Part shown: positions 7,914 to 18,699 of the stretch, in pieces
Position numbering within the stretch: position 1 is the stretch's first letter
How the letters are laid out: every line of letters starts with the position of its first letter
Assembly: GCA_963783885.1 (NCBI GenBank)
Contig: CAWAPJ010000036.1
Location: 1 to 38,261 of the forward strand
Length of the DNA: 38,261 nt
Direction of reading: 5' to 3'
Source of the DNA: Waddliaceae bacterium
GTDB lineage: Bacteria; Chlamydiota; Chlamydiia; Chlamydiales; SLFE01
The notes under the pieces: generated by a model
What the model was told of the DNA's origin: nothing
Seen by the model: only the letters and a program-made list of their open reading frames with translations
Databases searched by the model: none
Translations under genes and position numbers: made by a program

Positions 7914-9317
7914 CTAAAATTCCGCTTTGCCGGGTGTGCGGGGGAAAGGAATAACGTCACGAATGTTTTCCATGCCTGTGATGTATTGGAGAAGACGCTC
8001 GAAGCCGGCGCCGAATCCCGCATGAGGAACAGACCCGTATTTGCGAAGTTCTAAGTACCACCAGTAATCCTCTTTGCTCATCTCATGCTCGGACATCTTT
8101 TTTTCGATAATATCGAGGCGCTCTTCCCTCTGGCTCCCACCTACGATCTCCCCAACTCCGGGGACCAAAACATCCATGCAGGCGACAGTTTTTTGGTCAT
8201 CATTTTCCCTCATATAAAAAGGCTTGATACGTTTTGGATAGTCGGTGAGGATAACCGGTTTTTTGAAATACTCTTCGGCAAGGTAGCGCTCGTGCTCCGA
8301 CTGTAGGTCCAGTCCCCACTTTACGGGATACTCGAACTTTTTATTGGCCTTTTCCAAAATACGAATCGCATAGGAATAGGCAGCCCTCTCAAAAGGGGTA
8401 TCGACAACATGCTTTAAACGATCCAGAACTCCTTTGGAAATGAAACGGTCAAAAAATGCCATATCCTCTTCACAATGCTCGAGCACATACTTAAAGACAT
8501 ATCTGAGATAATCTTCTGCAAGGTCCATATCGTCGGTCAGATTGGCAAAAGCCATTTCCGGTTCGATCATCCAAAATTCGGCCAAATGGCGTGAAGTATT
8601 GGAGTTTTCCGCGCGGAATGTGGGACCGAAGGTGTAAACATCGGAAAGCGCCAAAGCATAAATCTCGGCGTTGAGCTGCCCAGATACTGTCAGGTAGGCA
8701 GGCCTCTCAAAGAAATCCTGAGAAAAATCAATCTCTCCCTTTTCGGTTTTGGGAAGCTCTTGAAGATTGAGCGTGGAGACGCGGAAAAGCTCGCCGGCCC
8801 CCTCGCAATCCGAGCCTGTGATCAACGGGGTGTGAATCCACAAAAATCCTTTTTCATCGAAAAACTTGTGCGTTGCCATCGCGGCGGCGTGGCGGACGCG
8901 GGTCACAGCCCCAATGGTGTTGGTGCGTGGCCTTAAGTGGGCAATCGTGCGGAGAAACTCCAAACTGTGCCTTTTCTTCTGCAGGGGATAGGATTCCGGG
9001 TTTGCGGTGCCGATAATATTGAGGGATTTAACTTTCAGCTCGACGGCCTGTCCCTTGGCCGGACTTTCGACGATCTCGCCTGTCGCCTCGATCGAGCATC
9101 CGGTAGACACACGGCCCATGATATTGTGATAATCGGGAACTTCCTGATCCACAACGCACTGCAGGTTGCCAAGAGTCGATCCGTCGTTGACTTCGATAAA
9201 ACTGAATGTTTTCTGATTGCGAACAGTCTTGACCCACCCTTTCACAGTCACTTCTAAACCGAGGATTGATTTGACATCACCGGCCGGATGCCTTAGCTTT
9301 TTAATTCTGCTTCGCAT
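7914..9317 (-). CDS. asnS: Asparagine--tRNA ligase
   Basis: OB-fold [60 protein letters not shown]. Confidence 0.97.
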
Positions 9318-10183
9318 GCTCTACCTCTTGCTAAATCTCTTAAAAGGGCGATCTCTTTTGTCCAAAGCGGGGGGCCTCCCGGTGTTTCCAGATACTTCGG
9401 AAGGTGCCGCGTCAGAGGATGATTCATCAAAACCCGGAAACACTCAAGTCCAATTTCACCCTCACCCAAAGGCTTATGCCTGTCGACCCGGCTGCCCAAT
9501 CCTTTCATCGAGTCATTTAAATGAAACGCTTTAAGAAAATCCAAACCCACCTGCCGATCAAATTCTTTCAGAGTGTTATCCCAATCTTCTTTTGTCCGGA
9601 TGTCATAGCCGGCGGCAAATGAATGGCAGGTATCGATGCAAACGCCGATTGGAAGGCGGTCCTTAACCTTGCCCACAATGTAGCCCAATTCCTCAAAGCG
9701 GTACCCGACAGTCGACCCCTGTCCGGCCGTCGATTCCAAAATCAGCTCTGTCGGCCCGCCCGAAACAAGTTCTTCCACCTCCAAAAGACTTTCGACAATG
9801 CGGTCCAGACACTCGGTCCTGTCCTCTTTAAGGGCGGCTCCGGGATGAAAGTTGAGATAGGAAATGCCCAGAAGTAGGCATCTCTCGATCTCCTCCCGAA
9901 AAGCGCCCCTGCTCTTTTCCAAAACTTCGGGATTCGGGGCGCCTAAATTGATCAGGTAGCTGTCGTGGCACATGATCTTCTGCAGACCGGTTTCCTCGAG
10001 CGTCTTTTCCCAAAGATCCAGCTCCTTTTGGGTGAATTTCCTCCCCTTCCACTGCTTTTGATTGCTGGTGAAAAGCTGGACGGTCGCCGCACCGATCTTT
10101 TGCCCTTCCAGAAGGGCGTTGTGGACCCCTCCTGCGGCAGAGGTATGAGCCCCTATCAACAATGGATTCTCTTCGATTGACAT
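9293..10183 (-). CDS. nfo: Endonuclease IV
   Basis: [46 protein letters not shown]...DRH, ETP. Confidence 0.96.
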
Positions 10184-10209
10184 CAGGAAAAATGATAATT
10201 CAAGAGGGA

Positions 10210-11052
10210 TTACTCTTCAAGCCATTCGTTTGCCCGAGCCACCAGCTCCTCTGAAAGCTGGAGCCGCCTGCAGATCTCTATAAATTTTTTTGCGCCGCTT
10301 TGTCCAAGCCCTGTAAAATCCGGCTCGACTCCATTTTCAATAAAGTTGTAAATCACTTTAAAAGCTCTGGAATGGCAATCTTGCAAGTGAAAGTCACGCG
10401 TTTCGCCCGTTTGGCCACGAAAATATCCGCTCTGATGTTCAAGAAGCAAATCATGAAACGTATAGATGGCGCTGCCGACACGCACCCGAACATCCCGTTC
10501 ATGCCGGCAAAAAACTTTTCGGCTCGCATTGGCAATGACTCTGAGCCACCTCAGCGAATACTCATTCACCTTAGCCAATTCCTCAATTTCTCTATAAGCA
10601 ACTTGCAGGTAATTCGCAAGTATCGTGGTTTTGTGTTCCTTCTCACACCCGTAGACAAAAAGAATCGCCATCTCTATGGGATCCTCAATTTCATCTTGAT
10701 TGGTGATTAAATAGCCAAAGCGACTCTCCAAAGCCTTCCGGTTTTTTTGAACAAGAACTCCAATATCCTGCTCAAGGGCTAAGTACCTTTGCCAAACGAC
10801 ATGTTGCGGAAAAAGGGAATCAACGTGAAGCCAATTAAATAATTTTACGAGGGCGACACATCCGTGAGTGTTCTTGCGGCAGATTCTTCTGGCCTCGAGT
10901 TTAGCAATGCTTAATTCGCGCAGATTGACATTGCAAATTCGCATAGAAATATCTTGAATCCGATCGGGATCCCAGGAGGAGGACTCCCCCTCAATCCTTT
11001 TCAGACTCTGCACATCCCTTTTGTACGGAGAATTTACATGATCCAAAATCAT
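10210..11052 (-). CDS. Protein with C-terminal BTB/POZ domain (effector-like)
   Basis: DVRVRVGSAIYTFHDLLLEHQSGYFR...LQDCHSRAFKVIYNFI matches BTB; start placed at ATG 11052 to avoid overlapping murJ. Confidence 0.75.
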   Translation of the reverse strand: MILDHVNSPYKRDVQSLKRIEGESSSWDPDRIQDISMRICNVNLRELSIAKLEARRICRKNTHGCVALVKLFNWLHVDSLFPQHVVWQRYLALEQDIGVLVQKNRKALESRFGYLITNQDEIEDPIEMAILFVYGCEKEHKTTILANYLQVAYREIEELAKVNEYSLRWLRVIANASRKVFCRHERDVRVRVGSAIYTFHDLLLEHQSGYFRGQTGETRDFHLQDCHSRAFKVIYNFIENGVEPDFTGLGQSGAKKFIEICRRLQLSEELVARANEWLEE

Positions 11053-11075
11053 AAAATCGGCTACCCTGCATCCAA

Positions 11076-12374
11076 ATGCCCGACAATAACCAATCAATAA
11101 TGCGATCCGCAAGCAAATTTTTCAGCGGCACCCTGCTCAGCCGGGCAACCGGACTTTTACGCGATGCCGCCATGGCAGCGGTTTTTGGAGCCAGCCCCGA
11201 GGTAGCCGCTTTCCTTCTCGCCTTCCGCCTCTCCCATCTGGCGAGACGAATTTTCGGAGAGGGGGCGCTGCAAACAGCGTTTATCCCCCAATTTGAAGAA
11301 ATCAGGCACAAAGATCCGGAAAAAGGGAAGGAATTCTTCTGCAGCCTTGCCTCTAGCATCGCCTGCCTGCTCGTAATCTTAATTCTGGCGGCGATGGGCG
11401 CTCTGGGACTGACCCTCTCCTTATTGGATTTAAGCGAGGGAAACAGGCAGGTCGTCCAACTGACGCTGATCATGATGCCAAGCCTTTTATTTATCTGCCT
11501 CTACGGACTCAACCTCTCGTTTCTGCAATGCGAAAAGCATTACTTTGTTTCAAGCGCCGCCCCTGTCTTCTTCAATCTTGTCTGGATAGCTACTGCGGCA
11601 ACCACCCGAAATGTCACAGCTATGGCCGTCATGATCAACGCCGCCTGCCTGGCCCAATGGGCCGCAACCCTGCCCCAAACGATCAGGGCCTTGCAAAAAT
11701 TCAGCTTTCGACTCAATCCAAAAAGCATAGCCGCGTTCTACGCCCCTTTTTCCCTTTCGCTGATCGGCGTCATCGCCACGCAGATCAACAGCGCGATCGA
11801 CCCGCTCTTTGCCCGCTTTGCCGACCCCGAGGGGCCCGCTCTTCTCTGGTATGCAATCCGTCTCCAGCAGCTCCCTCTCGCCCTTATCGGCATCGCCCTT
11901 TCAAGCGCGGCTCTTCCCCCGCTATCCCGAGCGCTGGAGCAGGGCAATGACACAACTTACCGCCGCCTTCTTTTCGGTACGATGAAAAAAAATGTCCTTC
12001 TGATGATCCCCATTACTTTGGCGCTCTTCTTTTTTGGAAGGGAGATTATCGAACTTGTCTTTGGACACGGGGATTTCGGGCCCGCCGACGCAGCGAAAAC
12101 GACCCTCTGCCTTTGGGGCTATGCGCTGGGGCTTCTCCCCTCGGCGCTTATCCTGATCGCCGCCCCGGCCTTTTATGCTCAAAAAAACTACCGAATCCCG
12201 ATGCAAGGTTCTGTCCTCTCCATGCTGAGCAATCTCATTTTCAATTCAATTTTCATCTTATTTTTAGGATGGGGACCCGCCAGCGTGGCTCTCTCGACAA
12301 GCCTAAGCGCCTTCCTGAACCTGTTCTATTTGATGTATTTCCTTAAGCGATCTCCAATCTTTGCCAAAACTTAG
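11076..12374 (+). CDS. murJ: Lipid II flippase MurJ (MviN)
   Basis: SRATGLLRD, AFRLSHLARRIFGEGA...AFIP, YAIRLQQLPLALIG; multiple TM segments; lies between nfo and rpsD. Confidence 0.93.
   Translation: MPDNNQSIMRSASKFFSGTLLSRATGLLRDAAMAAVFGASPEVAAFLLAFRLSHLARRIFGEGALQTAFIPQFEEIRHKDPEKGKEFFCSLASSIACLLVILILAAMGALGLTLSLLDLSEGNRQVVQLTLIMMPSLLFICLYGLNLSFLQCEKHYFVSSAAPVFFNLVWIATAATTRNVTAMAVMINAACLAQWAATLPQTIRALQKFSFRLNPKSIAAFYAPFSLSLIGVIATQINSAIDPLFARFADPEGPALLWYAIRLQQLPLALIGIALSSAALPPLSRALEQGNDTTYRRLLFGTMKKNVLLMIPITLALFFFGREIIELVFGHGDFGPADAAKTTLCLWGYALGLLPSALILIAAPAFYAQKNYRIPMQGSVLSMLSNLIFNSIFILFLGWGPASVALSTSLSAFLNLFYLMYFLKRSPIFAKT
12354..12374 (+). repeat. att-like direct repeat copy 1 (21 bp, contains the murJ stop)
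   Basis: CCAATCTTTGCCAAAACTTAG; identical copies at 14851 and 15708. Confidence 0.9.
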
Positions 12375-12413
12375 GCGATATTGAAAAAGACGTCGTTTTG
12401 TCAGCCCAAAAGA

Positions 12414-14261
12414 TCAATCGAGAATTGATGTAGCTCCATAGAGATTCCAATGCAGGCGGTTCAACAGATCCTGCTTATTTTGATCTGATAAATCATATTG
12501 CATCCCATTTTCGCATCTGTCTATCCAATCTAAAACCTCATTTAAAGTATAATCCGAACATTTTTTATAATGCTGCCAGGCATACTGTCCCATCCTAAAA
12601 CCAACGACCCTTTCAGATTTTTCTGAATTTTTTGCCTCTTCTCTTTGGGAGGTGGTCAGCAATTCCAAAAATTCAAGCTCAGGAAATCCCTCGTTCGAAG
12701 AAGTCTCCTCGAAATCAATCAACTCTACATTAGCCTTCAGGTAAATTCCCTTTTCTAAGGTTGTATATATCCCATAGGCCAGTGAAGGGTGAATGAAGAT
12801 CTCACGAACTTCTCCTTTTTTCATTCCCTTGATTCCATATGAAAGCCCTGGTATGGTTTCGATCAAATTCAGAAATGCGGGATTTCCTCCCACTCTGGTA
12901 TCGGCCAATGCCTCTCCTTTAGGTGTATTAATCGTATAGTGAAGTTTGACTTTTGTTTGATGATTTAACATCGATCCGGAACCTTGACGTAATGTTTTGC
13001 AGTAAAGTTTTTCAGGGTAAAGGCAGCAGAAAGAGAAATCATGGCTGAGATGATCGAAAAAACATTCTGTTTCTTGAAGACGATTGAGAATTTTCGAGAA
13101 GGCCCACACCATTTCATGATGAACAATGTCCCTAATACTGCAATGAAAGGAAAGATTTGAATCCTCATCTTTCATGCCTTCAATGAAAGACTGGCGATAG
13201 TTTTTTGTCTCTTTTTTTAAATCTTTCCAAATGCTTGCTGCAACCAAAAGAGGAAGTTTAGATCGTTCCGAAGGGGTAAAAGATAATGTCCTGGGGGCAT
13301 GAGCAATATTTGGCAGTTTAATGGATTCTTGAGGATAAATTTTATCAAACACATCATTTAGAAAAGTTTTGGAGGACAACATTTTTTTGACAATGCGGTC
13401 CTGTGTTTCTTCAAGTGTCGCAATAAAATGATCGGTAGCATCATCTTCTTTTAGTCTTCCAAAGACGAATGGAGGAAAAGACCTATCGAGTTTTTCTGAA
13501 CATCGAATGAGTTGGCTTCTCAGGTCTGCTGCTTCTTCATCAAGAGACCGGTATCCAAAGCTGGGTGTTATGTCTATGATTTCTTTCGTTGAACTTTCAG
13601 TAAGCAAAAGCTGATTCTTAATATAAGGATTTATATGGCTGCCTTTGCCTTGAACCACTCGGCTTTTGAGGGGAACTTGTTCTCGAGATAAGATAGAATC
13701 AGCGATGATTTCTGATCGGCTATGATAGAGAGCATTTTGCGTACCAAACCCGAGAAGAATTCCAATCAAAACCTTGTCATATTTGAGTGTTTTAGAAAAG
13801 TCTCCTTTTGGCTGCACCAAAGCATTGCATAACGACTGGGGTGTCACTTTCGGACCTAAAACATACTGAAATAAAGGAAGATTTTCCTGAATCGTTTTTA
13901 ATAGGAGAGGTTTGTTGATAAAAAGGATATCGATCCAATTGCTGGATTTGGATTCTGATTCACAACAATGAAGAATAATATCTCCTTCAGATGCTAGCTT
14001 AAGGCGGTTTAAGAGTCGGGCTCCTTCCCGCAAGAAAACAGAGCATTGATGGTTGAAACATTCTGCATGGAAACCATCGACGAAGTGATACCCCTGATGG
14101 CACACGGGTTTTTCTCCATACAAAACATAGCCCGCTTCTGATTTTTCTATTGATGTTCGGAAAAAACCGTCCAGAATCAGATATTCTTCAACAGACAGTT
14201 CAATACTCGAACATTTTGAAGAAAGTATTATAAAATATGTGAAAATAAACAGTTTATTCAT
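12414..14261 (-). CDS. Secreted protein with an uncharacterised N-terminal region and an FKBP-type peptidyl-prolyl isomerase domain
   Basis: Signal-like N-terminus; YCKTLRQGSG...VKLHYTI...LNLIETIPGLSYGIKGMKKGEVREIFIHPSLAYG...ANVELI is an FKBP_C signature. Confidence 0.85.
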   Translation of the reverse strand: MNKLFIFTYFIILSSKCSSIELSVEEYLILDGFFRTSIEKSEAGYVLYGEKPVCHQGYHFVDGFHAECFNHQCSVFLREGARLLNRLKLASEGDIILHCCESESKSSNWIDILFINKPLLLKTIQENLPLFQYVLGPKVTPQSLCNALVQPKGDFSKTLKYDKVLIGILLGFGTQNALYHSRSEIIADSILSREQVPLKSRVVQGKGSHINPYIKNQLLLTESSTKEIIDITPSFGYRSLDEEAADLRSQLIRCSEKLDRSFPPFVFGRLKEDDATDHFIATLEETQDRIVKKMLSSKTFLNDVFDKIYPQESIKLPNIAHAPRTLSFTPSERSKLPLLVAASIWKDLKKETKNYRQSFIEGMKDEDSNLSFHCSIRDIVHHEMVWAFSKILNRLQETECFFDHLSHDFSFCCLYPEKLYCKTLRQGSGSMLNHQTKVKLHYTINTPKGEALADTRVGGNPAFLNLIETIPGLSYGIKGMKKGEVREIFIHPSLAYGIYTTLEKGIYLKANVELIDFEETSSNEGFPELEFLELLTTSQREEAKNSEKSERVVGFRMGQYAWQHYKKCSDYTLNEVLDWIDRCENGMQYDLSDQNKQDLLNRLHWNLYGATSILD

Positions 14262-14280
14262 AAATAATTATAGTTGAAAA

Positions 14281-14658
14281 CTACTCCTTTATCGAAGACT
14301 TGTTGAAGGGCTCTTCAGAGCATCGGCAGCGATAAATGCAAGAATAGTTACCACAGCCATTACAAACATAATGCATGATGCGATGCCCATTAGGACAGGC
14401 ATCTTGAGCCGAGTGGCCTAAAAATTCATCTTTTATATAAAGACCTATATTATCGGAAAACAATACCGATATTGGGATAATCTCTTCACCTTGAATCAAA
14501 TAAAGACTATTATCTACTATTAATAAATCATTGGAAGAAATATATATTCTTTCCTCAAATTCGTGTTTTGAAGGGTTAGGAGAATCGATTGCTCCTTCAA
14601 CAAGGCTTGTAAAAATTACCAATAAAACAAAAAGAAAATAACGAATAGAAATTTGCAT
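14281..14658 (-). CDS. Small secreted protein with a C-terminal six-cysteine module
   Basis: Signal peptide ending VEG-A; CPNGHRIMHYVCNGCGNYSCIYRCRC; AAGGAG RBS. Confidence 0.85.
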   Translation of the reverse strand: MQISIRYFLFVLLVIFTSLVEGAIDSPNPSKHEFEERIYISSNDLLIVDNSLYLIQGEEIIPISVLFSDNIGLYIKDEFLGHSAQDACPNGHRIMHYVCNGCGNYSCIYRCRCSEEPFNKSSIKE

Positions 14659-14740
14659 GCTTTTCTCCTTTCGAATTGCATTAAAGCTTGAAATGATTTC
14701 ACAATGTGCAAAAAAAAATCAATACTTTTATCGAAAAGGC

Positions 14741-14773
14741 CCTATCAATTTAACCTATCAGATTGACCTATCA
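14741..14773 (+). repeat. Three CCTATCA direct repeats at a 13-bp period
   Basis: Copies start at 14741, 14754 and 14767. Confidence 0.75.
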
Positions 14774-14850
14774 TACTGATAACCCACTTTATACGCCGGG
14801 TTTAGGTGTTTGTAGTCTGTTTTACTTAATTAAAACCTGAATTCAAGACG

Positions 14851-14879
14851 CCAATCTTTGCCAAAACTTAGCTATTGCA
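14851..14879 (+). repeat. att-like direct repeat copy 2 (29 bp shared with copy 3)
   Basis: CCAATCTTTGCCAAAACTTAGCTATTGCA, identical to 15708-15736. Confidence 0.9.
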
Positions 14880-14927
14880 TCTGTATGATATCTGTGATAT
14901 GTTTCCATTTTCAATGGAAACATCATA

Positions 14928-15728
14928 AATCTTGTCTGGATAGCTACTGCGGCAACCACCCGAAATGTCACAGCTATGGCCGTCATGATCAACGCCGCCT
15001 GCCTGGCCCAATGGGCCGCAACCCTACCCCAAACGATCAGGGCCTTGCAAAAATTCAGCTTTCGACTCAATCCAAAAAGCATAGCCGCGTTCTACGCCCC
15101 TTTTTCCCTTTCGCTGATCGGCGTCATCGCCACGCAGATCAACAGCGCGATCGACCCGCTCTTTGCCCGCTTTGCCGACCCCGAGGGGCCCGCTCTTCTC
15201 TGGTATGCAATCCGTCTCCAGCAGCTCCCTCTCGCCCTTATCGGCATCGCCCTTTCAAGCGCGGCTCTTCCCCCGCTATCCCGAGCGCTGGAGCAGGGCA
15301 ATGACACAACTTACCGCCGCCTTCTTTTCGGTACGATGAAAAAAAATGTCCTTCTGATGATCCCCATTACTTTGGCGCTCTTCTTTTTTGGAAGGGAGAT
15401 TATCGAACTTGTCTTTGGACACGGGGATTTCGGGCCCGCCGACGCAGCGAAAACGACCCTCTGCCTTTGGGGCTATGCGCTGGGGCTTCTCCCCTCGGCG
15501 CTTATCCTGATCGCCGCCCCGGCCTTTTATGCTCAAAAAAACTACCGAATCCCGATACAAGGTTCTGTCCTCTCCATGCTGAGCAATCTCATTTTCAATT
15601 CAATTTTCATCTTATTTTTAGGATGGGGACCCGCCAGCGTGGCTCTCTCGACAAGCCTAAGCGCCTTCCTGAACCTGTTCTATTTGATGTATTTCCTTAA
15701 GCGATCTCCAATCTTTGCCAAAACTTAG
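14928..15728 (+). pseudogene. murJ: Duplicated 3' 801 bp of murJ (5'-truncated copy)
   Basis: Matches 11574-12374 at a constant offset of 3354; differences seen at 15026 (synonymous G>A) and 15557 (G>A, M>I). Confidence 0.93.
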
Positions 15729-15736
15729 CTATTGCA
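15708..15736 (+). repeat. att-like direct repeat copy 3
   Basis: Same 29-mer as 14851-14879. Confidence 0.9.
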
Positions 15737-15767
15737 CATGTTTGTTTTTCCTATTCAGATAACGACC

Positions 15768-15821
15768 ATTATGACACCAATTCCGTTTTAGACTTGACTA
15801 TTCCGGAATTTGTGTCATAAT
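15768..15821 (+). promoter_or_regulatory. Inverted repeat (17/18) overlapping a putative sigma66 promoter of the ATPase gene
   Basis: ATTATGACACCAATTCCG / CGGAATTTGTGTCATAAT; TTGACT(15794)-N16-CATAAT(15816); ATG 7 nt after the -10 box. Confidence 0.55.
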
Positions 15822-15828
15822 AGACATT

Positions 15829-16968
15829 ATGAAAAGGAGTCTACAAAAATACATTCTTGAGGACCTGCCAAAAAAAATAGTCCTGATTAGTGGACCTAGA
15901 CAAACGGGAAAAACCACTGTTTCAAAGCAACTTTATGACGATTTTGACTACTTTAATTATGACTCAAGCGAGGATCGGTTAGCAATCCAACAAAAAAATT
16001 GGGATCGATCGAAGGAGCTTGTTATCTTCGACGAACTTCACAAGATGAAACAGTGGAAACGATGGTTGAAAGGAATATTTGATACAGAGGGCATCCCTCC
16101 TCAAATTTTAGTAACTGGAAGCGCCAAAATGGACATTCACAAAAGGGTTGGCGATTCGCTTGCAGGACGATACTTTCAATACCGCCTCCATCCCTTAGAT
16201 TTAAAAGAAGTACACCAATTTTTGGACCTAAGTATAGAAGATGGATTCGAAACTCTGTGGCATTGTAGTGGATTTCCGGAACCATTCTTAGAGGGGAGTC
16301 AAACCTTTTATAAACGCTGGCGTCAGAGTCATATTGACATTATTTTACGACAGGATTTAATCGACCTATCATCTGTTCGTGATATTGAGTCAGTACAAAC
16401 TCTTGTGCTACTCTTAAGCCAACGGGCTGGATCAACTGTTTCATATGCTAATCTTGGTCGAGACCTCGACCGTGACCCCAATACCATCAAACGATGGCTA
16501 CAGCTTCTCGAAAATCTCTACATCATTCACCGCGTCACCCCATATAGTCGCAATATTGCACGTTCATTGAAAAAAGAACCCAAATTCTATTTCTATGACC
16601 ACGCCTTGGTAGCTGATGAGGGTGCTCGTCTGGAAAATATTGTTGCAAATGCATTGAAAAAGGAATTGCATTTTCTCGAAGACACTCAAGGTATTAAAGG
16701 AGCTCTTCACTACCTTAGAACTAAAGACGGTCAGGAACTCGATTTCCTTGTTAGTCTCGATGGCAAACCCACGCATCTTATTGAAGTAAAGATGAGTAAT
16801 GGGAAACCCGCCCGAGGATTTCAGCATTTTGGTAAATTGTTTTCAGATGCGCAGCACCTCCAGGTAGTAAGGAACCTTTTGCGCAACATGTCTTTACCCA
16901 GCGGACTCTTTATTAAACAAGTAATTCCCTGGCTAGCTGAACTTTCGTTTTCAAATCTTAGACCCTGA
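15829..16968 (+). CDS. AAA+ ATPase with DUF4143 C-terminal domain (COG1373 type)
   Basis: Walker A GPRQTGKT, Walker B IFDE, VTGSA, SLAGR, GFPE, KFYFYD, ELDF...IEVK. Confidence 0.9.
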   Translation: MKRSLQKYILEDLPKKIVLISGPRQTGKTTVSKQLYDDFDYFNYDSSEDRLAIQQKNWDRSKELVIFDELHKMKQWKRWLKGIFDTEGIPPQILVTGSAKMDIHKRVGDSLAGRYFQYRLHPLDLKEVHQFLDLSIEDGFETLWHCSGFPEPFLEGSQTFYKRWRQSHIDIILRQDLIDLSSVRDIESVQTLVLLLSQRAGSTVSYANLGRDLDRDPNTIKRWLQLLENLYIIHRVTPYSRNIARSLKKEPKFYFYDHALVADEGARLENIVANALKKELHFLEDTQGIKGALHYLRTKDGQELDFLVSLDGKPTHLIEVKMSNGKPARGFQHFGKLFSDAQHLQVVRNLLRNMSLPSGLFIKQVIPWLAELSFSNLRP

Positions 16969-16974
16969 TTGCTA
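16961..16974 (+). repeat. Solo terminal-repeat fragment of the 18518-18678 element
   Basis: GACCCTGATTGCTA, identical to 18518-18531; supplies the ATPase TGA stop. Confidence 0.7.
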
Positions 16975-16994
16975 AGTTAGATGCGGCTTGAGCC

Positions 16995-18197
16995 TTATAA
17001 CTTTTTACATTCAAGTTTGATATGTAATCGCCCATCCTCAATTAGTTGTGAAAGAGGCGGGCCATGATTCGAATTACCTGTCCCGAACCATCTACCATTG
17101 CCATAATTTTTTTCCTTATAAAACGGCTGAGTAGAATGGTGGTGTTTGTTATTTCCTGTACCAAATGTCCATTTACAAGACAGATAGATCGTCTTTTTAG
17201 GAGCTTCTTTTATTGTTAAGTACACGCCATGTCCCCCAGTCGCCCTCTCTTCGATCATTATTATCCAGGTATGGCCGAACATCTGAAATTCCTCGGTTTC
17301 TTTGAGTGTTATTGTTTTATGATGAATTACATCTAAAGAAAGAGGCAAAGCAAAAGAATGGCTTGCTTTTTTTCTCGAAAAAGATACTGTCACCATTTCA
17401 GGTGGAAAACCCCGTCTTGTCTTGCTTTTTGATCCATCGATTACTTGTTTTATATAATCGACTTTTTGAAAATCATCGAGTATATCATCATTAAGAATAA
17501 GAGAAGTTTCACCTTTTCCAAAATTGTTGAACTTAACGCAATCTATCAGGCGATCGCCAAATCCCAGATCCATTTTGAGCAAATCTCCGGATTTTTGCCT
17601 CTTCTGGAGATTTTTCTTTTCCCACTTTCTAAGGATACTGTAAATTTCCGATTCGTAAAGTGGAAGATATGGTGATCGCAACAAATGGTATAGAGTGCGC
17701 GGCTTTGGATTCAAACCGAAAAGATTTTTAACATCGGAAAATCGATAAAACTCAGAGGTTAGAGAGTCTAAATAGACAATATCATCTAATATGGAGTTAG
17801 TTAATTTCTTTTCTCCAGACTCAAGTTTTTCGAGAACAGGGCCCCTCAACACATCCAGGAGCTGTTTTTCTCCGACCATGTTGGCATAGGCCATTAATTT
17901 GACCATGTCTTCAAGGTTTGAAGGCATGCATTTTTTACCATAGCGGTAGTGTAAATAAGACAGAAATGTTTTGCGGGAGACATCATTGATTTGAATGGGC
18001 TTACTGCCGGGATCTTCAGAAAATCCGCGGCTTGTCAACAATGTCGAAAAATATTCATTTTCTTTTATCAACATAATTTCATGGACAGGAATGAAGCTGC
18101 CGTCTAGTAAAAATAAGATATCGCACTTTTGCCTCTCCTCTTCTGAAGAAAAAGGAAGCGATTTCCAATCAATGGCTTCGGATTCCTTCTCGATCAT
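16995..18197 (-). CDS. BTB-BACK-MATH-like protein (putative Cullin-3 adaptor mimic)
   Basis: BTB: CDILFLLDGSFIPVHEIMLIKENEYFSTLL...INDVSRKTFLSYLHYRY. BACK: LLRSPYLPLYESEIYSILRKW...LIDCVKF. MATH-like: FQMFGHTWII...GVYL...LIEDGRLHIKLEC. Confidence 0.8.
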   Translation of the reverse strand: MIEKESEAIDWKSLPFSSEEERQKCDILFLLDGSFIPVHEIMLIKENEYFSTLLTSRGFSEDPGSKPIQINDVSRKTFLSYLHYRYGKKCMPSNLEDMVKLMAYANMVGEKQLLDVLRGPVLEKLESGEKKLTNSILDDIVYLDSLTSEFYRFSDVKNLFGLNPKPRTLYHLLRSPYLPLYESEIYSILRKWEKKNLQKRQKSGDLLKMDLGFGDRLIDCVKFNNFGKGETSLILNDDILDDFQKVDYIKQVIDGSKSKTRRGFPPEMVTVSFSRKKASHSFALPLSLDVIHHKTITLKETEEFQMFGHTWIIMIEERATGGHGVYLTIKEAPKKTIYLSCKWTFGTGNNKHHHSTQPFYKEKNYGNGRWFGTGNSNHGPPLSQLIEDGRLHIKLECKKL

Positions 18198-18699
18198 CGA
18201 CTGGATATACTGCCAATGTATTGTTTATGGGGAAGAGTATTGATTTCAAAAAAAATGTTTTGAATATCCTGATTCCGTGGAAATTCGCCTGCAATCCTCA
18301 ACAGGAAGAAAAAATGACTTTTGTTCGTTAAATCAAAATCATATTTATATCGACTAAGAACCTCATGCGCTATTTTTGAAGCTTTTTTTCTGATATCTGA
18401 ATTCTTAGCATCTTTCTTTTTAGGCGTATAAACCTTGTAGGAATCTCCAACTTTCTGTATCCAAACATTTGTTTTTTTCTCATACTGAGAATTATATTTA
18501 TTGACTATATTTTCTAGGACCCTGATTGCTACCTAAACTTGTTGTTAAAGTCTTTCGTTGGATTCAGATGCGTAGACTCGATTTGAAGGCAAGGGTTATC
18601 CCTTGCCTGATAATCGAGTCTTACGCAGATGAATTCAATGAAAGATTTTAACAACAAGTTTAGGTAGCAATCAGGGTCTAGGGATATGTTGTCTTGCAT
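18194..18699 (-). pseudogene. 113-aa ORF (probable N-terminal part of the BTB gene) interrupted by a MITE
   Basis: Removing 18518-18681 restores ATG CAA GAC AAC ATA TCC CTA GAA AAT ATA..., open for 342 nt to TGA at 18194, which overlaps the BTB ATG (ATGA). Confidence 0.75.
18518..18678. mobile_element. 161-bp fully palindromic MITE with a 3-bp TAG target-site duplication
   Basis: Termini GACCCTGATTGCTACCTAAACTTGTTGTTAAA / TTTAACAACAAGTTTAGGTAGCAATCAGGGTC; TAG at 18515-18517 and 18679-18681. Confidence 0.9.

Follow-up and report, generated by a model that had tools for sequence, protein, structure and literature searches.

The DNA analysed here, hereafter the window, comprises positions 1 to 38,261 of contig CAWAPJ010000036.1 (forward strand, 38,261 nucleotides) from the Waddliaceae bacterium assembly GCA_963783885.1, a member of the Chlamydiota. 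Its minus strand carries two adjacent genes, which encode a small protein of 125 residues (gene 1) and a large protein of 615 residues (gene 2). A sequence-only reading of the window had proposed that they form an undescribed system, in which a secreted six-cysteine protein is served by a dedicated large partner with an FKBP domain. The two open reading frames (ORFs) and the 19-nucleotide gap between them were confirmed from the ORF positions and the sequence (Table 1). Our data indicate that the window carries one copy of a two-gene cassette that is conserved and mobile in environmental Chlamydiota. In what follows, loci, genomes and contigs are designated by L, G and C numbers where they have to be told apart.

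The N-terminus of the small protein is hydrophobic and signal-like, as judged by reading the translation and not by a predictor. It is followed by a domain of five short beta strands (residues 37 to 76), for which the AlphaFold2 (AF2) model reached a predicted local distance difference test score (pLDDT) of 79 to 95 over the block. This beta domain is kept in all small-protein members and is the best-conserved part of the family. The region between the signal peptide and the cysteine module had been described as an acidic spacer; it holds instead this conserved and confidently modelled domain, which argues against the proposal that gene 1 encodes a pre-pro-peptide. No family was assigned to gene 1 in Pfam (E ≤ 0.01), NCBIfam or PADLOC-DB, and no solved structure resembling its model was found.

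The cysteines of gene 1 (residues 88, 99, 102, 107, 111 and 113) follow the pattern C-x10-C-x2-C-x4-C-x3-C-x-C with a Cys-Pro start, exactly as first read. Together with H92 and H96 they provide eight candidate ligands (six Cys, two His) within 26 residues, which may be enough for two metal sites. In the small-protein alignment (A2, 31 sequences), the invariant positions besides the start methionine are C88, H92, C102 and C107, and G91 is nearly invariant. Position 96 is a histidine in the window and a cysteine in other subfamilies, and the proline after the first module cysteine is not conserved across the family. In minimal members the module is reduced to C, H, C, C, and several mature proteins have an odd number of cysteines. 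The C-terminal module takes various forms, CPNGH..C..C, CPxC..C-x4-CP, W-x-C-x2-C-x3-N-x6-C-x2-C and multi-CxxC. Among the small proteins of distant pairs, a CPxC-x8/9-C-x4-CP module was found in L070, L071, L072 and L063, several CxxC pairs in L061, L066, L069 and L073, and the W-x-C-x2-C-x3-N-x6-C-x2-C ending in L058, L059 and L065. Comparison by eye showed that the CPNGH knuckle of the window becomes CPxC in other members with the layout of the module unchanged. A paralogue from the same genome (L058:103-429, contig C21) reached E = 3.4e-4 and 20.7 bits with Pfam Zn_Ribbon_1 (PF13240), whose cut-off is 25 bits, and E = 0.041 with DZR.

Thus, the C-terminal module of gene 1 is probably a zinc-ribbon-type knot. 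Metal binding is favoured over a disulfide knot because only three cysteines and one histidine are invariant, minimal modules have three cysteines and a histidine, His and Cys are exchanged at position 96, and some paralogues have a two-knuckle CxxC...CxxC ending. Of the alternatives first offered for gene 1, a defensin-like knot is therefore disfavoured, and a putative metal-binding module is the best fit. The module is like zinc ribbons and RanBP2-type fingers in having two short knuckles with four Cys/His ligands within ~20-26 residues, and several small-protein paralogues end in CxxC-x11-CxxC with a tryptophan before it and a central asparagine, as in the RanBP2 consensus. Unlike these domains, the module of the window has no Pfam match, begins with a C-x3-H knuckle, holds eight candidate ligands in its 26 residues and lies behind a beta domain on a protein that is presumably exported by the Sec pathway, and its metal binding is predicted.

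The N-terminus of gene 2 is likewise signal-like in the translation. The AF2 model, built from a 35-sequence alignment, reached a mean pLDDT of 89.0 and a predicted template modelling score (pTM) of 0.82. The sole Pfam match was FKBP_C (PF00254) at residues 433 to 497 (E = 4.1e-9, 37.1 bits against a cut-off of 21.1), and the same family was matched in 35/35 aligned members; NCBIfam gave weak FKBP-type matches only, far under the cut-offs. The FKBP fold is present in the model, and many FKBPs were matched by Foldseek and VIA. Full-length Legionella Mip was matched by Foldseek with E = 1.4e-8, and the profile of the gene 2 family matched Mip (1fd9) with E = 4.1e-14 over profile positions 330 to 514; trigger factor chains were weak, FKBP-only matches. 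Like Mip/FkpA proteins (Legionella Mip 1fd9, E. coli FkpA 1q6h, P. aeruginosa FkbA 7dek and chlamydial Mip), gene 2 has a helical arm, a long helix and a C-terminal FKBP at residues ~329-518, and it is predicted to be exported. The Mip-like FKBP domain reported earlier therefore stands. The FKBP domain is followed by a ~95-residue part with helices at 537-612, in which H604, W605 and Y608 are conserved (alignment A1). Of the ~400 residues of unknown fold once attributed to gene 2, the ~300-residue N-domain does remain unmatched, but the rest is a complete Mip/FkpA-like helical arm (~329-406).

Mip proteins are virulence-associated chaperones. Gene 2 differs from a stand-alone Mip of ~200-270 residues by its length of 615 residues, by its extra ~300-residue N-domain and ~95-residue C-terminal helical part, and by the dedicated small gene in front of it. 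It also differs from the chlamydial Mip, a lipoprotein according to the title of a reference in PMC2811131, since the residues before its first cysteine (..SSK-C) do not fit the usual lipobox pattern. No structure or sequence match was found for the N-domain and the C-terminal part; the structure comparison was made with the whole-protein model, in which every Foldseek and VIA match covers residues ~329-523 and the N-domain was not queried separately.

The N-domain had no Pfam match in the 35 + 9 + 37 family members scanned and no NCBIfam or PADLOC match, and no catalytic family or motif was recognised in it. Its invariant residues are mostly glycine, proline and hydrophobic ones; the polar ones are Y45, R182 and E243, and K51, N176 and E184 are nearly invariant. 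DUF4504 (PF14953) was considered and not confirmed: the lead from the ESM Atlas scored below 0.9, the family was present in only 13% of the members of one cluster, and no match was obtained among 37 + 9 proteins. The DUF4504 Pfam model was also found in 0/5 genomes rich in the cassette family, a weak negative as the control genomes were negative too. The other ESM Atlas leads, all below 0.9, pointed to Chlamydiota clusters without a name. A word-indexed protein search returned 93 homologues of gene 2, and the N-domain profile (A3) retrieved 1,567 representative clusters at E ≤ 0.001, 366 of which also passed E ≤ 1e-30. In the databases the large protein is labelled 'FKBP-type peptidyl-prolyl cis-trans isomerase' or 'hypothetical', and the small protein 'hypothetical'.

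The canonical pocket of FKBP12 is formed by Y26, F36, D37, F46, I56, W59, Y82 and F99. A HMMER alignment of gene 2 to the active FK1 domain of wheat FKBP73 showed that the equivalents of Y26, F46, I56 and Y82 are kept, and that several canonical positions are replaced (F36 by L, D37 by A, W59 by L, F99 by A), the replacement of D37 being less certain as the alignment is gapped there. In most of the gene 2 family the equivalent of W59 is a phenylalanine (alignment A1). The pocket is thus degenerate, so that prolyl isomerase activity of the gene 2 FKBP is doubtful.

The FKBP is also not what the members of the large family have in common. ORFs of 250-380 residues, with the N-domain only and no FKBP, also sit behind small-protein genes. 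Split forms recur, with an N-domain ORF and, immediately after it, a separate Mip-like one (in G239, G386, G072, G023, G253 and G245, among others); in three split examples (G239:C9:26549-28368, G072:C4:645-2449 and G090:C1:953135-954963) a ~310-residue N-domain ORF precedes a Mip-like open frame of ~300-430 residues. The fusion seen in the window is therefore one of several arrangements. Ordinary Mip is present in nearly all sampled genomes: the whole-protein profile A1 matched 385/400 of them, most only at profile positions ~318-520 (E 1e-15 to 1e-34). Since the small protein also pairs with N-domain-only proteins, its conserved partner is the N-domain, and the Mip/FkpA-like arm and FKBP are optional. 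These results speak against a dedicated FKBP foldase, and they weaken the idea that the FKBP isomerises the Cys-Pro bond of gene 1, in which the proline is itself unconserved.

The association of the two genes was followed through the phylum. A locus scan with the single gene 2 protein yielded no confirmed relative. A scan with the gene 2 profile (alignment A1, one genome per species) gave 50 loci, nearly all from chlamydial metagenome-assembled genomes (MAGs) and a few labelled Verrucomicrobia or 'bacterium'. A small-protein homologue lies directly upstream on the same strand in 37/50 of these chlamydial loci. The hidden Markov model used for the small protein was made from 32 seeds picked by hand among upstream ORFs, 30 of them within the 50 loci; 7 of the 37 upstream homologues were non-seeds and were thus found independently. 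Five multi-copy genomes, a biased choice as they were selected for being multi-copy, showed neighbouring partners for 29/36 small-protein hits and 29/32 N-domain hits (pairing by hand, one pair divergent). Up to 14 small-protein and 11 N-domain hits occurred in one genome of 2.3 Mb.

In a sample of 150 genomes of the phylum, both families were found in 49, the N-domain only in 5, the small protein only in 11 and neither in 85 (overlap determined by hand). The N-domain profile (E ≤ 1e-10) was positive in 54/150 genomes and 40/90 genera, and the small-protein profile (E ≤ 1e-4) in 60/151 genomes. As the sampled genomes are related and not independent, these counts are descriptive and do not constitute a test statistic. 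Family f4, with genomes of 1.0-1.3 Mb, gave no hit to either profile in the 26-27 genomes sampled. Co-occurrence of the homologues, on which the sequence-only reading had staked its proposal, is thus borne out both at the level of loci and at the level of genomes.

The divergence of the two partners is correlated. Pairwise identities of the small proteins and of the N-domains, compared over 22 loci (231 pairs), gave a Pearson r of 0.835, a value reached by 0/2,000 permutations, which indicates that small protein and N-domain are inherited and duplicated as a unit. Order, orientation and short gaps are kept across the phylum at 17-66% small-protein identity, with long, short and split partners and in unrelated contexts. 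The closest orthologous pair (L004, in a MAG labelled Waddliaceae) shares 79% and 66% amino acid identity with the pair of the window and 82% nucleotide identity over window positions 12439-14670, and is flanked by unrelated genes. The ratios of non-synonymous to synonymous substitution rates (dN/dS) against this pair, calculated with our own Nei-Gojobori script, were 0.31 for gene 1 and 0.24 for gene 2. Both genes are thus under purifying selection and are maintained coding genes rather than chance ORFs.

No gene family recurs beside the pair (141 flanking ORFs, 39 loci). Transposases, AbiE, Cas3, DUF4143 ATPases, BTB, F-box and ankyrin genes are frequent in its neighbourhoods. The genome of the window itself has three pairs, on contigs C36 (the window), C4 and C21. 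In the C21 pair (L058, 103-429 and 426-1202), a zinc-ribbon-like protein of 108 residues with a putative signal peptide overlaps an N-domain-only protein of 258 residues by 4 nucleotides. The C4 pair (L002, G000:C4:14233-18561, and L003) is decaying: its large gene has stop codons and is split by ~1.4 kb, the C-terminal part resuming in L003, and its small gene (L002:1095-1469) looks intact. The ~1.4-kb insertion holds a 135-residue ORF on the opposite strand and a 314-residue ORF whose translation, judged by reading, resembles a transposase. Upstream of the small gene of this pair there is a long inverted repeat (L002 ~797-825 / 933-960, arms of ~28 nucleotides, ~110 nucleotides apart) resembling a miniature inverted-repeat transposable element or a hairpin. 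Elsewhere, L009 and L036 each contain an extra small-protein paralogue (L009:8005-8460 and L036:181-618) at a distance of a few kb from their main pair, and MAG contig JAAKFR010000049.1 (L028, L035) carries two pairs a few kb apart.

In the window, the cassette stands out by a G+C content of 36-39%, against 46-54% in its flanks. A genome of the same genus (G379) aligns contiguously to window positions 9300-12374 and 14947-18200, and has a single murJ directly followed by the native downstream sequence. Positions 12375-15728 of the window (3,354 nucleotides) are therefore an insertion. It consists of the 2,476-nucleotide cassette, a 37-nucleotide relic, 40 nucleotides of unrelated sequence and an 801-nucleotide second copy of the 3' part of murJ (Table 1). 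Two candidate mechanisms, a simple att-type insertion with a 21-nucleotide duplication and a Campbell-type integration of a circle carrying 801 nucleotides of murJ, were considered; each alone fails to explain the relic and the 40-nucleotide spacer, and the layout is explained by no single simple event. Wherever Logan contigs from four DNA runs cover the window, they match it without a difference, and they bridge the end of murJ to the cassette and the end of the repeat to the native downstream sequence. No single Logan contig spans the whole insertion and several bins are uncovered; these contigs neither prove nor disprove the duplicated murJ structure. Record 26 of X4 enters repeat copy 2 by only 21 nucleotides, less than the 31 required. 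The association with murJ is local to the genome of the window.

Table 1. Features of the cassette and of its insertion site, in window coordinates.
Feature	Position	Strand	Basis
Gene 1, small protein of 125 residues: signal-like N-terminus, beta domain, Cys/His module	14281..14658	minus	ORF and homologues
Gene 1, signal-peptide-like N-terminus, residues 1-23, ending ..VEGA	14590..14658	minus	Reading of the translation; AF2 helix at residues 2-22
Gene 1, conserved beta domain, residues ~35-80	14419..14556	minus	AF2 model and family alignment
Gene 1, Cys/His module, residues 88-113, probable zinc-ribbon-type knot	14320..14397	minus	Conservation and paralogue endings
Intergenic gap, gene 1 stop to gene 2 start, 19 nucleotides	14262..14280	minus	Sequence
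Gene 2, multidomain protein of 615 residues with signal-like N-terminus	12414..14261	minus	ORF and homologues
Gene 2, N-domain, residues ~22-320, alpha/beta, outside known families	13302..14198	minus	Profile and model
Gene 2, Mip/FkpA-like helical arm, residues ~329-406	13044..13277	minus	Structure matches
Gene 2, FKBP domain with degenerate pocket, residues ~407-518	12708..13043	minus	Pfam, Foldseek, VIA, HMMER alignment
Gene 2, C-terminal helical part, residues ~519-615, conserved ..HW..Y end	12417..12707	minus	AF2 model and alignment A1
Upstream non-coding region of the cassette	14659..14850	minus	Sequence
Direct repeat copy 1: last 801 nucleotides of intact murJ (11076-12374)	11574..12374	plus	99.75% identical to 14928-15728; MurJ Pfam E 2.7e-87
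Relic: 21-nucleotide murJ tail and 16 nucleotides resembling native downstream sequence	14851..14887	plus	92% identical to 15708-15744
Direct repeat copy 2: duplicated murJ 3' fragment closing the insertion	14928..15728	plus	Repeat comparison

Upstream of gene 1, the motif CCTATCA occurs three times with a 13-nucleotide period (14741-14773), and the double repeat is unique in the 2.16-Mb assembly; these repeats could be a regulator binding site. A promoter scan performed no better than chance (8 promoter-like sites against 6.6 expected), a terminator scan showed no terminator after gene 2, and no RNA run is among the 18 public runs listed. Beside the insertion lie a DUF4143/AAA_14 ATPase gene (15829-16968) and a eukaryote-like BTB/POZ-domain gene (16995-18197); a 300-residue ORF at 10210-11112 was assigned to no family. 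ATPase genes also flank the pair elsewhere, of a similar type in L037 and of other AAA types in L005 and L015, and in the genome of the same genus a part of the DUF4143/AAA_14 gene is present a second time, at 92% identity.

Binding of the two proteins was addressed by complex prediction. Gene 1 with gene 2 scored 0.54, 0.71 and 0.36 (median 0.54), against 0.00 for the best of 3 controls, with a contact agreement between runs of at least 43% and a partner pLDDT of at least 54. In the calibration the mark was reached by 116/157 solved complexes and by 2/215 mismatched pairs, and a score of 0.60 or less was reached by only 18/157 solved complexes and by both of the mismatches that passed. As the prediction used our own alignments, this calibration is only roughly applicable. 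No interface was reported, and the physical association first supposed receives weak support from the models.

What do the two proteins do together? We tentatively favour a specific exported pair of a carrier or chaperone and its cargo, in which the N-domain is helped by the Mip unit. Both proteins would be exported by the Sec pathway and work together specifically, the N-domain holding its cognate small protein in the periplasm by the constant beta domain. A holdase or scaffold function, rather than an obligatory prolyl isomerase catalysis, would come from the Mip-like unit, and the variable zinc knot would be the functional tip, displayed or released. Such an organization has a working analogy in the lipase-specific foldase Lif, a private exported helper encoded with its client lipase, as here an apparently exported client and a private exported helper would be encoded together. 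Unlike Lif and lipase, to which gene 2 shows no homology (its Pfam match is to FKBP_C only), the present pair is a multi-copy family, the helper is six times the size of the client, and the conserved part of the helper has no fold match. In SurA, PpiD and trigger factor, the peptidyl-prolyl isomerase activity is dispensable for chaperoning; like these chaperones, gene 2 has its isomerase domain between non-isomerase parts of a protein that is modelled as compact (pTM 0.82), and its degenerate pocket would suggest a similar dispensability of the activity.

Several points weigh against this preferred reading, for which the evidence comes from sequence and models. A dedicated chaperone of 600 residues for each client of 100 residues, up to 14 times per genome, would be extravagant. 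Many pairs do without the FKBP unit, the pocket of which is degenerate, so that no evidence links the N-domain as such to chaperoning. Zinc sites are rarely encountered in the oxidising environment of the periplasm, where the cysteines of gene 1 could form disulfides instead. The closely matched divergence of the partners would be at least equally well accounted for by an enzyme with its inhibitor or a toxin with its immunity protein, and congruent divergence and co-occurrence are expected for any adjacent genes that are inherited together, even if their products do not bind. The pairing is also incomplete. No upstream small gene was detected in 13/50 loci, of which 3 are at contig edges (L029, L050, L053), 2 are disrupted by mobile elements (L011, L014) and 8 are unexplained. 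In the five multi-copy genomes, 7/36 small-protein hits (one at a contig end) have no N-domain neighbour, and 3/32 N-domain hits have no small-protein neighbour.

These points lead to other readings of the pair. The N-domain may be an exported enzyme or toxin, for example a hydrolase directed at the envelope or at the host, with the small protein as its specific, co-evolving periplasmic inhibitor or immunity protein. The correlated divergence of the partners, the many paralogous pairs per genome, the location in variable regions near transposases, defence genes (AbiE, Cas3), DUF4143 ATPases and BTB, F-box or ankyrin genes, the recent insertion in the window and the decay of the C4 paralogue by stop codons and an inserted element all agree with such a pair, as does the size relation of a small neutraliser to a large effector. 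The polar conserved residues of the N-domain could form an active site; yet the invariant positions are mostly the glycine, proline and hydrophobic ones listed above, Pfam, NCBIfam and PADLOC recognise no catalytic family or motif, and Cys54, tried as a catalytic residue as it is invariant in 35 close homologues, is replaced by Ser, Ala or Asn in distant ones. Also, both proteins have putative signal peptides, the architecture is fixed with no swappable C-terminal toxin, and the variable part lies in the small protein. The defence and toxin-antitoxin models of PADLOC-DB identified 0 families in four proteins (the window pair and the C21 pair). We consider this reading rather unlikely. If the variability of the tips is put foremost, the pair may be a new kind of diversifying exported two-component system in obligate intracellular bacteria, in which the beta domain is a constant handle, interchangeable zinc-knot tips recognise or attack varying targets such as host factors or bacterial competitors sharing the amoeba, and a co-evolving N-domain neutralises, carries or presents them; the cassettes would then multiply, move and decay like polymorphic toxin-immunity modules. 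This is rather unlikely in our estimation. In a variant of it, the Cys/His knot would be a zinc/disulfide redox switch tied to the transition from a reduced to an oxidised envelope in the chlamydial developmental cycle.

The small protein may otherwise be a secreted host-directed factor, with a zinc-finger-like tip active in the reducing cytosol of the amoeba or in the inclusion, and the large protein its periplasmic pilot. Several paralogue endings fit the RanBP2-type consensus, which belongs to a mainly eukaryotic domain; eukaryote-like BTB, F-box and ankyrin-kinase genes are often nearby; inside a reducing compartment of the host a zinc site would remain stable; and variable tips suggest a diversifying recognition of targets. 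Secretion beyond the periplasm is a supposition, however, the module of the window has no Pfam zinc-finger match and that of its paralogue is below the cut-off, and this reading overlaps the carrier-cargo one, from which it differs only in the destination of the small protein. We regard it as unlikely. The layout also recalls the small and large cysteine-rich envelope proteins OmcA and OmcB of Chlamydiaceae, where the gene of a small, Cys-rich exported protein adjoins that of a ~60-kDa exported protein. A structural pair of a disulfide-cross-linked outer membrane complex, like OmcA and OmcB with Mip, would use its cysteines as cross-links, with zinc perhaps as a redox switch. The predicted export of both proteins and the many non-conserved extra cysteines in both are in line with such a role, and the absence from the sampled f4 genomes is compatible with a lineage-specific make-up of the envelope. 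But this absence also sets the pair apart from OmcA/OmcB, no Pfam match (E ≤ 0.01) to the chlamydial cysteine-rich envelope families was obtained, the zinc-ribbon-like pattern with its conserved histidine, the His/Cys swap and the odd cysteine count of minimal members fit metal binding better, and a patchy, multi-copy and mobile distribution is unusual for core envelope components, so that we hold an envelope pair to be quite unlikely. Finally, two unrelated exported genes may simply travel together. Orphans of both kinds and the complex prediction scores leave some room for this, which is very improbable nevertheless given the order, orientation and short gaps conserved between divergent pairs in unrelated contexts, and the distribution of the two families over the 150 genomes.

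No description of the pair was found in the open-access full text of the literature, PMC2811131 and PMC3482391 included (main texts), in agreement with its first description as undescribed. We rate the combination of a beta-plus-zinc-knot protein with an N-domain protein as an undescribed kind of system, of which the only recognised part is the Mip/FkpA unit. Found in about one third of the 150 sampled genomes of the phylum, the pair ranks among the larger unexplained families of presumably exported proteins in environmental chlamydiae, and the cassette has the character of accessory, mobile DNA situated among genes for host interaction and defence. Should the two proteins bind each other, the pair would offer a tractable system for studying how a zinc-knot protein is served by a private partner in the periplasm, and would provide a function for an unusual Mip derivative. 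Should the variable tips be directed at host or rival cells, the family would represent a diversifying system of a new class among intracellular bacteria.

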